From a virus (taxonomy: Duplodnaviria > Caudoviricetes), in the IMG/VR virus record IMGVR_UViG_3300019784_002254, positions 1 through 32,534 of that record: DNA of 32,534 nt. The stretch is one strand, 5' to 3'. Shown piece by piece: positions 3,065 to 30,417 of the stretch (position 1 is the stretch's first letter; each line of letters starts with the position of its first letter). A program made the translations under genes and the position numbers. The notes under the pieces are model-generated. The model did not search any database and had not been told where the DNA came from. It was given only the letters and a program-made list of their open reading frames with translations.

Positions 3065-3616
3065 CTATTTTTTAATTAAATTGATAAAATTTATCATTTG
3101 ATCTTTTGTGAAATCATTTTTCATAACATTAATACAATAACATACAAACTCAACATTACCTTTGATATATCCTATGTTTGGATCAATTCTATCAAGACTT
3201 AATTTAGTTGGGCTTTTTTTAATATCTTCATCTTGAGAAGACCTTGGTATTTCCATCTTGATTCTTGTATATGTACATAAACCGTTTTGGTTATCATACG
3301 TTTCTTTAAGATACTCTAAAGTTAAGTCTGTCTCTCCTCCCTTTTCCTTGCTCCTTGATCTAGCTTTATTTAAAGAATATTTAAAAGGACTATATTCATC
3401 TAGTCTATTAGCTTCGTGACCTTTTAATAAACTAATATTACCTTTGTTTTTTTCTAGTTTACTTGGGTTGTTTTTATAATCAGCTTTTCCAGAACATTTT
3501 AAACTACAATAAAATTTATTTTGCCCAGCTTTAATTTTTCTATTATAATCGCCCAATCTTATTTCATGTGCTTTATTACAAGTAGCACAAACTATTTTTG
3601 TCTTTTTTATGTTCAT
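3065..3616 (-). CDS. HNH-type (His-Me finger) endonuclease with N-terminal zinc finger
   Basis: CATC and YCSLKCS Zn motifs; SLDRIDPNIGYIKGNVEFVCYCINVMK is typical of free-standing phage HNH nucleases. Confidence 0.75.
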   Translation of the reverse strand: MNIKKTKIVCATCNKAHEIRLGDYNRKIKAGQNKFYCSLKCSGKADYKNNPSKLEKNKGNISLLKGHEANRLDEYSPFKYSLNKARSRSKEKGGETDLTLEYLKETYDNQNGLCTYTRIKMEIPRSSQDEDIKKSPTKLSLDRIDPNIGYIKGNVEFVCYCINVMKNDFTKDQMINFINLIKK

Positions 3617-3684
3617 GTAAAGATTGTATACTACTAAAATATAATTGTCTAATAAAAAATGCAGACAGGGAGATTCGTTTTACT

Positions 3685-4070
3685 TGGACGCGGAGGAAGT
3701 TGAATCCTCGTCTTTTAAAAATCCAAATTAAAATACTACAAGTTTAGCTCTTTTTATTTTTAGCTTTGTATAGATAAAGAACAAACATACTCAGCGAGTT
3801 TATTTTTGATATTGAATATAAAAAGAATAAAAAAACTTTTTATGCTCAAACATCTAATTACGCAACTATCCAATAGATGTGTCAAGGTAGTCACGCTGTA
3901 ACTTAAGCTACAGAAGCGGTCAACTCAACAAGAGAAACTCTTGCTGAAATATGACCTTTATATTTTGCTGTTTTGGCAGTTGATATAAATGAAACTTTTT
4001 AAGGAGTCCTCGATTCAACCTCCACTTGCATTTTAATTCATATCTCTAAAATCGAAACCAGTACGCGCCC
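3685..4070 (-). ncRNA. ssrA: tmRNA (phage-encoded)
   Basis: 5' GGGCGCGUACUGGUUUCGA; 3' GACGAGGAUUCAACUUCCUCCGCGUCCA. Acceptor stem GGGCGCG/CGCGUCC has G3.U70 and A73; T-arm GAGGA-UUCAACU-UCCUC; tag frame 3977..3903 AKTAKYKGHISARVSLVELTASVA*. CCA not encoded. Confidence 0.93.
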
Positions 4071-4099: not shown

Positions 4100-4315
4100 T
4101 TATAAAGCTTTTAATAATCTTTGGCAATCTTTTTTATAAACAAATTTAAATTTAATTCTTGAACCATTAAGATCTGATATTAATTGAGATACTGCTATGC
4201 ATGGATATTCCTCTGGATTATCATAAATAATAAAATTATTAACATTGTAATACTTCGCGCACTTATATGCATAAGCTTCCCATCTTGCTTTATTTTTAAC
4301 TATTTCCATTTCCAT
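4100..4315 (-). CDS. Hypothetical protein
   Basis: 71-aa ORF co-oriented with neighbours. Confidence 0.55.
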   Translation of the reverse strand: MEMEIVKNKARWEAYAYKCAKYYNVNNFIIYDNPEEYPCIAVSQLISDLNGSRIKFKFVYKKDCQRLLKAL

Positions 4316-4331
4316 CTATTATAAATAAAAT

Positions 4332-4360
4332 TTGACAAAAAAACAAGATTAATGTACTAT
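4332..4360 (+). promoter_or_regulatory. Sigma70-type promoter driving the ncRNA
   Basis: TTGACA (4332-4337)-17 nt-TACTAT (4355-4360); no ORF follows. Confidence 0.7.
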
Positions 4361-4366
4361 TACATA

Positions 4367-4700
4367 TACATAGTTCCCAATTAGAGCAGTTTGTTGATGT
4401 CAAACAATCAACTATCAATCCCTGAGATAGCAATGTCATAAGGGCTGACAACTATTAAAACCTTCGTTTGTACATAATATGGCTAAAGAAGGAAATGTAG
4501 CTATAGGCATCGCAGAATGTAGTGATCGAAGCTACCTCTGATCCATAAGTGCGATGGCCCATTCACCGCTGAGATCGTGGTGAAATTTGGAGTCAAAAGA
4601 AAAGTTGGATTGATAATACTTAACTTCAGATATACGATATTTGGAGGTAAAGCCCTTTTGGATATCAAAGAAAAGTTAAATAATTAAGAAGAGAACTATA
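4367..4700 (+). ncRNA. Unassigned highly structured RNA (~330 nt)
   Basis: No ORF of 60 aa or more in the track; closing helix ATAGTTC(4370-76)/GAACTAT(4693-99); TATCAATCC/GGATTGATA; CATCGCA/TGCGATG; TTCACCGC/GTGGTGAA; TTAACTT/AAGTTAA; GCAA tetraloop hairpin. Confidence 0.7.
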
Positions 4701-5216
4701 TTAGAACCATACTTCATTATGTATAATTCTTAATACTTTAATCCAATCTTTAAGATGTTCTGATATATGTATTTTGTCTGAATTTTCAAAACCATTTTTA
4801 GCTATATTATAATAAGTATTTTCTGATGGATAAGCTCGTCTTGGTCGATTTAAATTCTTATAGAAAAAACCTAAAAATACAAGTAATGATTTGGCAGTAT
4901 CCTCATCATGTTTAAATTCAAATATAGATTTCTTTACAATAGGTTCACCAATTAAATCATAGAATTTCAAACCGACTGCTTCTGAAACATACTCTTTTTC
5001 TTCAAAACTATATTTTAAATCTTTACTATATTTTATAATAGTTATTTCTGCAAATACTGGAAAACTTATGTCTATAATTCCATCTATATTATCTTCGGAA
5101 ATTTTATTTAATATTTCTGGTAAACATTCTGGATCTTGAATCAGTAAAAAAGTTTTTTCTGGTGATAAATTTAATTTCTTGGCAAAAAAATCAATATCCC
5201 GATCTGAAACAATCAT
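4701..5216 (-). CDS. Hypothetical protein
   Basis: 171-aa ORF; CTGTAA variant motif just upstream. Confidence 0.7.
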   Translation of the reverse strand: MIVSDRDIDFFAKKLNLSPEKTFLLIQDPECLPEILNKISEDNIDGIIDISFPVFAEITIIKYSKDLKYSFEEKEYVSEAVGLKFYDLIGEPIVKKSIFEFKHDEDTAKSLLVFLGFFYKNLNRPRRAYPSENTYYNIAKNGFENSDKIHISEHLKDWIKVLRIIHNEVWF

Positions 5217-25524: not shown

Positions 25525-25539
25525 TTAAATAAAATTTAT

Positions 25540-25626
25540 GGAACGATGGCTGAGTGGTCTAAAGCAGAAGTTTACTAAACTTCCGATGGTTAACTCCATC
25601 CGTAGGTTCAAATCCTACTCGTTCCG
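25540..25626 (+). tRNA. tRNA-Ser(ACU)
   Basis: GGAACGA/TCGTTCC acceptor, GAAGT-TTACTAA-ACTTC anticodon arm, long variable arm GATGG/CCATC, G73. Confidence 0.9.
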
Positions 25627-25742
25627 AATTGATTAATATGAACGAAGAAAATTACGCAGGAGAATGTTTGCTTGTTGTTGGTATGATAATGATATATAGT
25701 ATTATTATATTTGTTATACTATATGAAAGTGTAAAGTAATAC

Positions 25743-29122: not shown

Positions 29123-29770
29123 ATGGGTATGTTTAATTATATCAAGATCGAGCAAGATTTACCTCTTAATGATGAGCTAAAAGCTCTTAATGTTGATTTT
29201 AAGAAAGAAGAATTTCAAACAAAAGAACTAGAAGAAAGTCTTATGTCTACTTATATTATCCGTGATTATAGACTATTTGAATTAAAAATAACTAGCCATT
29301 GGGAAGATAATCCAGATTATGTAAAAGATGGTAGTAGATTTGGCGAATTTTTTAATAAGAATAAATTGGTAGAAGATAGCAGAGAAGAAGTTTTTAGAGA
29401 TGATTATACTGGCACATTTACTTTTGGTGCTTATATCTCTGGCAAAACCAAGGAAAGCTATGATTACTTTCCAGATTGGAAATGTGTTGTAGTCCAAGGT
29501 TTATTAACAGAAATATCTTTAATTACGCCAGTTGAAAAAAATTCATCTGGAAAAAGAATAGATGCAGAAGAATCTTTTATGAAAGAAATAGAAGATCACG
29601 AAAGAAAAATGAGATGTCCAGTTTATAGTTTTTACTTTAAATATTATGTTAAGACAATGAATCTAGTTGAATGGAAACTTTCTATTGGGATTGTCAAGAT
29701 TATTAATTTCTTGAATTGGCTACAATGGAAAGGCATTAGAAAAGTTATAAGGATTTTGACACCAAGATGA
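29123..29770 (+). CDS. Conserved phage hypothetical protein
   Basis: MGMFNYI...FQTKEL pattern. Confidence 0.65.
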   Translation: MGMFNYIKIEQDLPLNDELKALNVDFKKEEFQTKELEESLMSTYIIRDYRLFELKITSHWEDNPDYVKDGSRFGEFFNKNKLVEDSREEVFRDDYTGTFTFGAYISGKTKESYDYFPDWKCVVVQGLLTEISLITPVEKNSSGKRIDAEESFMKEIEDHERKMRCPVYSFYFKYYVKTMNLVEWKLSIGIVKIINFLNWLQWKGIRKVIRILTPR

Positions 29771-30417
29771 AAAAATTTAGAATTGTTACTCATCTTTGGC
29801 CTACCGCAGATGAAATGGATAAAGAACTATTAATTAATTTAGATAATCAATCAGTTACTAATAGAAAAACAAATCATACATATATTCCTCAAATTAGCGG
29901 TCAATGCAAGTATCCAGCAATCAATTATTCTAGAAATAGCAAATTAATTAGAGTATTATTGCATAATGTTTTATTCTATCACAAACATAGATATTTACCA
30001 GAAGAAATAGACCATATAGATTTTAATAAATTGAATAATGATATTAATAATTTAAGACCATTGACAACAGAGGGAAACAGAAGATATAACAAGAAAAGAA
30101 AATATTTGAAAGGCAAAAAAACATCTTCTAAATATATTGGAGTCACTTTAGATAAAAAAGCTCAAAAATTAAAGACTGGAAAAGTTTGGAGAGCTAGAGT
30201 TGTTGTTCCAAAGAATCATCCACAATTTAATAATATAAAAAGACTTGAACTTCACTTAGGTTTCTTTAAATCAGAAGATGAAGCGGGACAAGTAGTAAAT
30301 GACAAAATAAGAGAGTTAGGATTAGAAGATATTTCTGTAATGAATGATACGCCACAAGAAAGAGCAAGAAAATTAAGTTTATTTGACAACTTAGAACCTA
30401 TTACAGATTTAAAATGA
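29767..30417 (+). CDS. HNH-AP2 homing endonuclease-like protein
   Basis: EIDHIDFNKLNNDINNLR (HNH); SSKYIGV..WRARV..HLGFF..EDEAG (AP2). Confidence 0.88.
   Translation: MKKFRIVTHLWPTADEMDKELLINLDNQSVTNRKTNHTYIPQISGQCKYPAINYSRNSKLIRVLLHNVLFYHKHRYLPEEIDHIDFNKLNNDINNLRPLTTEGNRRYNKKRKYLKGKKTSSKYIGVTLDKKAQKLKTGKVWRARVVVPKNHPQFNNIKRLELHLGFFKSEDEAGQVVNDKIRELGLEDISVMNDTPQERARKLSLFDNLEPITDLK

Follow-up and report, generated by a model that had tools for sequence, protein, structure and literature searches.

A conserved RNA gene of large phages, predicted to form three pseudoknots, carries two matched 17-letter words

A conserved non-coding RNA gene is predicted at positions 4368..4676 (+ strand) of the window, by which we mean the whole 32,534-nucleotide stretch of phage DNA analysed. 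Judged from sequence, it is a conserved RNA gene of a large-phage clade and lies outside the catalogued families; we recovered 116 distinct copies in six subtypes, all from this one clade. Conservation, covariation, the promoter and the lack of a matching Rfam family support the original prediction of a large structured phage RNA, possibly of a new class, with its boundaries and part of its fold corrected. Large, ornate RNAs without an assigned function are rare and mostly come without a mechanistic handle. The evolutionary signal in this one is unusual, as two long unpaired words covary by identity and not by complement. Newly added here are the six-subtype set, the 17-letter register of the words and a reading of the RNA as a former of R-loops.

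A conserved RNA gene outside the catalogued families

The ends of the gene are placed by conservation; since this does not extend beyond about 4676, the length of the RNA is taken as ~310 nt (280-320 nt across subtypes) and not as the ~330 nt first proposed. The sigma70-type promoter that had been read from the letters, TTGACA-17-TACTAT, is present, with its -35 hexamer at 4332..4337 and its -10 hexamer at 4355..4360 (both + strand) on either side of a 17-nt spacer. TTGAC stands upstream of 110 of the 112 copies with enough flank (three without flank were left out), and the full -35/-10 arrangement is kept in 107 of the 112, the spacer sequence being free. By itself the window promoter is modest evidence, with 53 promoter-like sites observed across 6 kb against 41 expected. 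The absence of a sizeable + strand ORF across the segment was borne out, and the small ORFs within the RNA were rejected as coding on account of non-triplet indels and a lack of conservation. We assign the RNA to the + strand because of the promoter and the GNRA loops in types 2 and 4-6.

The first search pattern gave two members among 23 loci, both identical to the window. The neighbouring 171-aa gene led to 33 loci, 25 with the full element and four with a part cut at the locus edge; three of the remaining four records hold a divergent copy elsewhere. Pattern scans returned 57 members among 92 loci, 63 among 102, 61 among 89 and 78 among 84, and those non-member matches that were inspected resembled chance matches in coding or repeat sequence. 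Relatives of NrdB revealed three more subtypes, sited before nrdA and missed by the first profile, for which a pattern yielded 27 loci. The full-length copies number 115 (66, 15, 12, 5, 4 and 13 for subtypes 1-6), and the 116th, L729, came from a model search instead of a word pattern. Among types 1-3 identity goes as low as 58%, and the gene is single-copy in each of the 18 records examined. Over 14 type-1 loci, mean identity to the window is 92.6% for the RNA, 85.6% for the tmRNA, 79-82% for the flanking ORFs and 70% for the promoter region.

Searched with the Rfam 15 covariance models, the window matches no family, whether the gathering level or a cut-off of E 10 is applied, a snoRNA match (E 9.8) being the only return; families without a match at the gathering threshold include ROOL, GOLLD, OLE, raiA, RNase P, group I/II and ribozymes. 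Seven loci of types 2-6 also gave no Rfam family match. Against the INPHARED phages, blastn produced short chance matches only, and tblastn with the capsid of the clade produced none. Patterns for types 1-3 had no match among genome contigs. The sole match there of the types 4-6 pattern, which was rejected, lies in Singulisphaera, where the RNA model was empty in the 150 scored of 287 candidates. A sequence-only model found no match in five records of more distant large phages (>=90% complete). In an unrelated GC-rich phage (L433:600-720) a short stem resembling P4, described below, sits in a structured leader before a tRNA; this leader has no Rfam match.

Neither a description of the RNA nor any of the six word sequences was found in the open literature searched. 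For the supplements of Fremin 2023 (PMC10690425), a motif search of three files and a search for contig ids in one gave no match; the RNA may be among the 10,000 candidates of that study. Passages of PMC10085705 concern hammerhead permutations. By membership the RNA is a new class; if the best reading given below were true, its mode of action would be that of a known primer RNA, achieved with another design.

A covarying fold with about nine helices and three pseudoknots

Covariation among the copies supports a fold of nine or so helices and three pseudoknots, for which fold energy alone is modest evidence (z = -2.53 for 4365-4705). Among types 1-3 (81 sequences) the paired share of cells is 90.2%, compared with 80.1% in shuffled and 32-49% in slid controls, and both sides change in 44 of 73 pairs; one of the 73 (4505/4559) was wrongly guessed and never pairs. 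Across all six types (38 sequences) 79.6% of cells are paired despite misalignment between types, and for PK1 the figure is 97.7%.

The cell counts that follow, taken within types, are favoured by construction because the helices were set by eye. The P1 hairpin (4373..4387; 4373-76/4384-87) is 99.7% paired, with both-side changes in three of four pairs. This and the following elements are all on the + strand. The PK0 pseudoknot (4389-92 with 4458-61) has 3-4 bp, shares its last C with P5 and forms in 474 of 477 cells over the six types, and the P2 hairpin (4393..4412) is longer in types 2-6. The long-range helix P3 (4413-21 with 4607-15; 836/860 cells) is the 9-bp helix proposed originally: every one of 594 cells is paired in the window's subtype, and the other five subtypes differ in sequence. 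The two segments of the P4 stem (4427..4455; 4427-30/4452-55 and 4434-37/4447-50) pair in 460/460 and 423/423 cells, 883/883 in total. PK1 (4440-46 with 4651-57) is a pseudoknot paired in 824 of 826 cells, with both-side changes in five of seven pairs; its strands differ by type, for example AAGGGCU/AGCCCUU, GAAGACUU/AAGUCUUC and GGAGCUU/AAGCUCC. Beyond the P5 hairpin (4461..4492), which is variable in length, lies PK2 (4497-4502 with 4530-35), where the suspected pseudoknot GUAGCU/AGCUAC is upheld by pairing in 653 of 668 cells. P6 (4508-14/4550-56) and P7 (4524-27/4540-43) form in 777/778 and 433/442 cells. The P8 hairpin (4562..4584), directly 5' of word 1, has both-side changes in eight of eight pairs, and the P9 hairpin (4623..4648) is variable and pairs in 537 of 575 cells.

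All four pairings of the original prediction can be drawn in the window, and two of them are not confirmed by the homologues. The pairing of the ends (4370-76/4693-99) forms in just one of 52 homologues, namely the window. Of the 52, 26 form the 5-bp A/U helix 4379-83/4681-85. The supposed GCAA tetraloop is likewise discarded: it has no closing pairs in 25 of 66 type-1 copies, zero to two in types 2 and 4-6, and four in type 3. GCAA is invariant and constitutes the internal loop of the covarying stem P4 (4427-4455). PK0, PK1 and the twin words were absent from the original prediction.

Five type-6 copies (L604, L607, L703, L709 and L711) have lost GGAGU after P5 and have GGAG at word 2. Each of these strings could pair with the P2 loop, L693 being a misfit, and a fourth, shifting pseudoknot is possible in this type.

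Twin words that change together

Word 1 (4589..4605) and word 2 (4660..4676), both of 17 nt and on the + strand, agree with each other in each copy. No partner strand for word 1 was found inside the RNA, and word 2 is its last conserved element. The words vary in sequence across lineages while their agreement is kept inside each copy. An 11-letter tract takes eight states and is identical between the words in 115 of 115 copies. In a 17-letter register that leaves one letter of each word unpaired, 15 of 16 positions are identical throughout the 116 copies, one cell excepted. The sixteenth is G in word 1 and A in word 2 in 93 copies and C in both in 23, and the unpaired letters vary regardless of the other word. 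On a tree built without the words the 11-letter tract has changed at least nine times, each change being mirrored, and L729 adds more; single-letter changes are mirrored even along short branches. Some discovery patterns required parts of both words, and copies found from proteins or by the model are equally concordant. The word-to-word spacing is 63-75 and keeps to no multiple of three.

No internal column of the RNA tracks the words in seven nearest-neighbour contrasts, and among 18 records no phage DNA site outside the RNA gene matches or tracks them. Word class shows no link to 53 of the 54 protein families in common or to tmRNA similarity, the window tmRNA being 92% like that of a type-6 phage and 80% like that of another type 1, so an outside partner is not indicated. 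Because the majority of records are incomplete, they may lack a partner gene or target. Whenever the words match, the only sequence complementary to both of them is the complementary copy of the gene itself, which points to the template DNA.

The sole family of the 54 that splits by word class encodes a 124-aa protein (G006:112406-112780, L619:12406-12780); it was not accepted as a partner, since one side of the split consists of just two members, each of type 5. In nrdA, another ATTGGGAA, the third, was rejected as a word site because it supplies Asp-Trp-Glu codons in all types, and a third word copy in one record (G015) lies within thyX at a site whose homologues do not follow type. Set against motifs of tRNA anticodon loops, 16S rRNA, cobalamin riboswitches and group I, the words gave no likeness consistent across types. 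In types 3-6 (e.g. L561 and L567) a conserved TACAC stands 15-30 nt after word 2, before nrdA, and probably belongs to the promoter or operator of that gene.

Genome position and expression

The immediate neighbours of the RNA gene vary; its place and direction are kept. The gene lies at the divergence of the genome arms: in each of 18 records, 85-100% of the coding sequence behind the promoter is directed away from it, as is the recA-dnaB-dnaG-polIII block, found behind the promoter in all 16 records holding those genes. Ahead of the gene, ligase and capsid are directed away from it, and the nrdAB segment switches orientation among lineages. The shared placement is a single inherited one, not many independent ones, and a position at the divergence of the arms also suits any early promoter. 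The cumulative GC-skew minimum, which is confounded by gene strand, lies no more than 1 kb from the gene in three records of types 4-5 (as near as 0.1 kb), at 5-8 kb in five and at 18-25 kb in two; skew follows gene strand, and fourfold sites yielded no separate replication signal. AT-richness after word 2 is modest only (percentile 0.58-0.96). A terminator-like hairpin was seen downstream in one of 112 copies. The gene is not followed by a fixed same-strand gene, as a riboswitch or 5' leader would be: a convergent gene comes next in most type 1-2 loci and nrdA in types 3-6.

Contigs from RNA runs give a weak hint of transcription; the runs with the region are freshwater or lake metagenomes. 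Run X1 holds a 271-nt contig identical to 4436-4706, separate from the tmRNA contig and from the next gene, and X3 has contigs at 4386-4534 and 4505-4690. Coverage in X5 spans 4578-4780, and X2 contains a contig from a relative that extends onward. In X4, X6, X7 and X8 the element has no contig though the tmRNA is covered, a gap that proves nothing. The contigs show neither strand nor level and may include DNA, and X1-X4 are possibly one campaign. No joint or skip between the two words appears in the eight RNA runs.

A possible R-loop at the start of replication

We tentatively propose that the RNA acts on its own DNA, where word 1 would pair with the template at word 2 and the R-loop would open or prime a replication origin. 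Host sigma70 polymerase would transcribe from 4368, and the 5' 290 nt would fold into a rigid scaffold that keeps word 1 single-stranded. As the polymerase passes 4660-4676, word 1 would capture the template strand there; the hybrid would persist, and the DnaB, DnaG and polymerase III alpha of the phage could then use either the end of the RNA or the displaced strand. The template at word 2 is complementary to word 1 only if the words are alike, so joint drift alone would be allowed. At the G/A position the complement of word 2 accepts G.T, whereas the reverse direction gives A.C; this fit of word 1 points to the template at 4660-4676 and to a co-transcriptional R-loop, and an outside partner bearing U explains the position equally well. 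With similar caution we suggest that an R-loop might account for the twin words and the fixed orientation, as well as for the single copy and the absence of a terminator. Slightly more doubtful is the wider claim of a new phage RNA class that starts genome replication, in which a triple-pseudoknot scaffold would guide one word to the template DNA of the other and origin specificity would lie in a repeat that drifts freely while both copies move together. If the R-loop reading is true, the phage would have a replication origin built on a folded RNA, which would hint at the role of some other ornate RNAs near origins.

In ColE1, according to passages of PMC4412123, the rG stretch of a promoter-driven transcript must pair with a template dC stretch, and T4 oriF and oriG are described there as a promoter plus an R-loop; G clusters favour R-loop initiation in an excerpt of PMC4083084. 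Like ColE1 RNA II and T4 oriF/oriG, as portrayed in sections of PMC4412123 and PMC4555960, the phage RNA is predicted to be a promoter-driven non-coding transcript without a terminator, with a proposed RNA-to-template pairing that is here a capacity of the sequence only. It has no sequence or fold likeness to any of them and has three pseudoknots. It differs further from RNA II in that 17-letter mixed words replace the G run and no antisense RNA I or Rop was seen. A G stretch facing dC is missing: the words of types 1-3, window included, are A-rich with no G cluster beyond GG, and GGG occurs in types 4-6 only. In ColE1 the G stretch is far upstream of its target.

Like the R-loop, an RNA-only structure would make an outside partner unnecessary: the words would pair like-with-like and in parallel, within one molecule or between subunits, and lock a particle of the ROOL, GOLLD or OLE kind. 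The purine-rich words would suit such pairing, and parts of PMC12286853 report four symmetric A-A pairs in OLE and describe ROOL and GOLLD as multi-pseudoknot phage RNAs near tRNA genes. We consider this structure unlikely, since it leaves the fixed genome orientation unexplained and since parallel helices permit A.U pairs too, of which the 116 copies contain one such cell; the term 'parallel' is also absent from a review of natural RNA assemblies (PMC12990946). Were the words to pair with each other, they would make a long RNA helix of an unusual kind, parallel and like-with-like. That the words are conserved and unpaired, and that subtypes are exchanged between phages whose NrdB proteins are 85-99% identical, would also fit a twin bait, a rigid scaffold that offers one handle twice to an RNA or protein of the host; a pseudo-ToxI-like defence decoy would be an example. 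Phage RNA mimics of ToxI exist (extracts of PMC3475682), and a partner bearing U would account for the G/A position. A protein partner, however, would tolerate independent drift at loose positions, and the changes are mirrored on short branches; moreover, tmRNA similarity, which is a weak proxy for the host, does not go with word class, and no target was identified in the phage records. We judge a bait improbable.

It is very unlikely that the words belong to a template-jump RNA of A-B-A' layout (cf. telomerase, DRT10 and DRT2), in which a polymerase would copy word 2 to word 1, halt at P8 and re-anneal. The A-B-A' identity pattern of the DRT10 and DRT2 ncRNAs is indeed present, P8 abuts word 1, the conserved span ends with word 2, and the sections available of a DRT10 study (bioRxiv 10.1101/2025.10.16.682844) give the same identity rule with a boundary hairpin. 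Yet an RVT_1 domain is absent from 21 records (one complete) and from 135 proteins of the relative G006, the B segment of 46-58 nt is locked in P3 and PK1 while DRT10 fails at 20 nt in those same sections, the spacing keeps to no multiple of three, the G/A position becomes an A.C mismatch in the copying direction, and a tandem junction is absent from 720 loci. We give equally little credence to the words as a by-product, either of gene conversion between short repeats, for which the phage does encode a RecA-like protein, or of a folding switch in which they alternate on one internal partner. In some types the 5' ends of both words could form pairings of 3-8 bp with the loops of P1 and P2, but the 3' tract is tracked by no internal column. 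None of the 116 copies has its central four letters homogenised, a point against simple gene conversion, and the matched pyrimidine stands one position out of register.

Likeness to other known RNAs

As ROOL and GOLLD are presented in parts of PMC12286853, the phage RNA resembles them as a large multi-pseudoknot phage RNA near tRNA-type genes with no assigned function; it has several covarying pseudoknots, and a tmRNA is adjacent only in types 1-2. Unlike them, it is ~310 nt long compared with 659 and >800 nt, it has no Rfam match at E up to 10, and its twin words are absent from the ROOL and GOLLD descriptions in those parts. In size it is also similar to ARRPOF RNA (255 nt), which is named for a replication region (passages of PMC12990946); it comes, however, from a phage and not from a Fusobacterium plasmid, and has no Rfam match. 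With the DRT10 and DRT2 ncRNAs and telomerase RNA it shares two segments that stay identical while drifting and a hairpin 5' of the first, and it differs in that the phage lacks an RT, the repeats are of 17 nt and not 2-4, and the spacer is long and base-paired.

The RNA is similar in size to bacterial RNase P RNA, and an invariant AGG-AAAG before the pseudoknot strand bears what we take to be a resemblance to RNase P conserved region I. In RNase P, conserved regions I and V build a P4 with a bulged U; in contrast, PK1 is an unbroken helix of 7-8 bp in all types, with no bulged U, and its partner lies 5' and not 3'. Type III antitoxins (ToxI-like) are tandem pseudoknot repeats beside a toxin gene, whereas the phage RNA is a single unit with no fixed neighbour gene.

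Source phage and neighbouring genes

The window is a large-phage fragment that encodes ribonucleotide reductase, DNA ligase, rIIA, a tmRNA and two tRNAs. A complete relative of 172 kb (G006), whose protein scan covered 135 of 162 longer ORFs, encodes polymerase III alpha, DnaB, DnaG, RecA and terminase. PATR and prepilin-type domains presumably hint at a host among the Verrucomicrobia or Planctomycetes. The tmRNA (3684..4070, - strand), a divergent neighbour with an Rfam match, adjoins the RNA gene in most type 1-2 loci and not in types 3-6; ARAGORN misses it in the window. Its long basic tag peptide is common to most of the clade and differs in one type-2 phage, and contigs of RNA runs X5 and X4 stop at its 5' end or nearby, with adapter letters. 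The neighbouring 71-aa ORF (4100..4315, -), with no assigned function, is absent at several loci and is thus no required partner of the RNA gene. The 171-aa ORF (4701..5216, -), also with no assigned function, is a convergent neighbour, and the neighbourhood is not fixed.

Directly behind the tmRNA is an endonuclease-like ORF (3065-3616, -; PHROG 3322), possibly a homing endonuclease, which one X1 contig joins to the tmRNA. A tRNA-Ser with anticodon ACU (25539-25627, +) is present in seven related records too; serine tRNAs with A34 are rare in bacteria. An HNH endonuclease gene (29767-30417, +) adjoins the ligase gene, and relatives carry several in this region.
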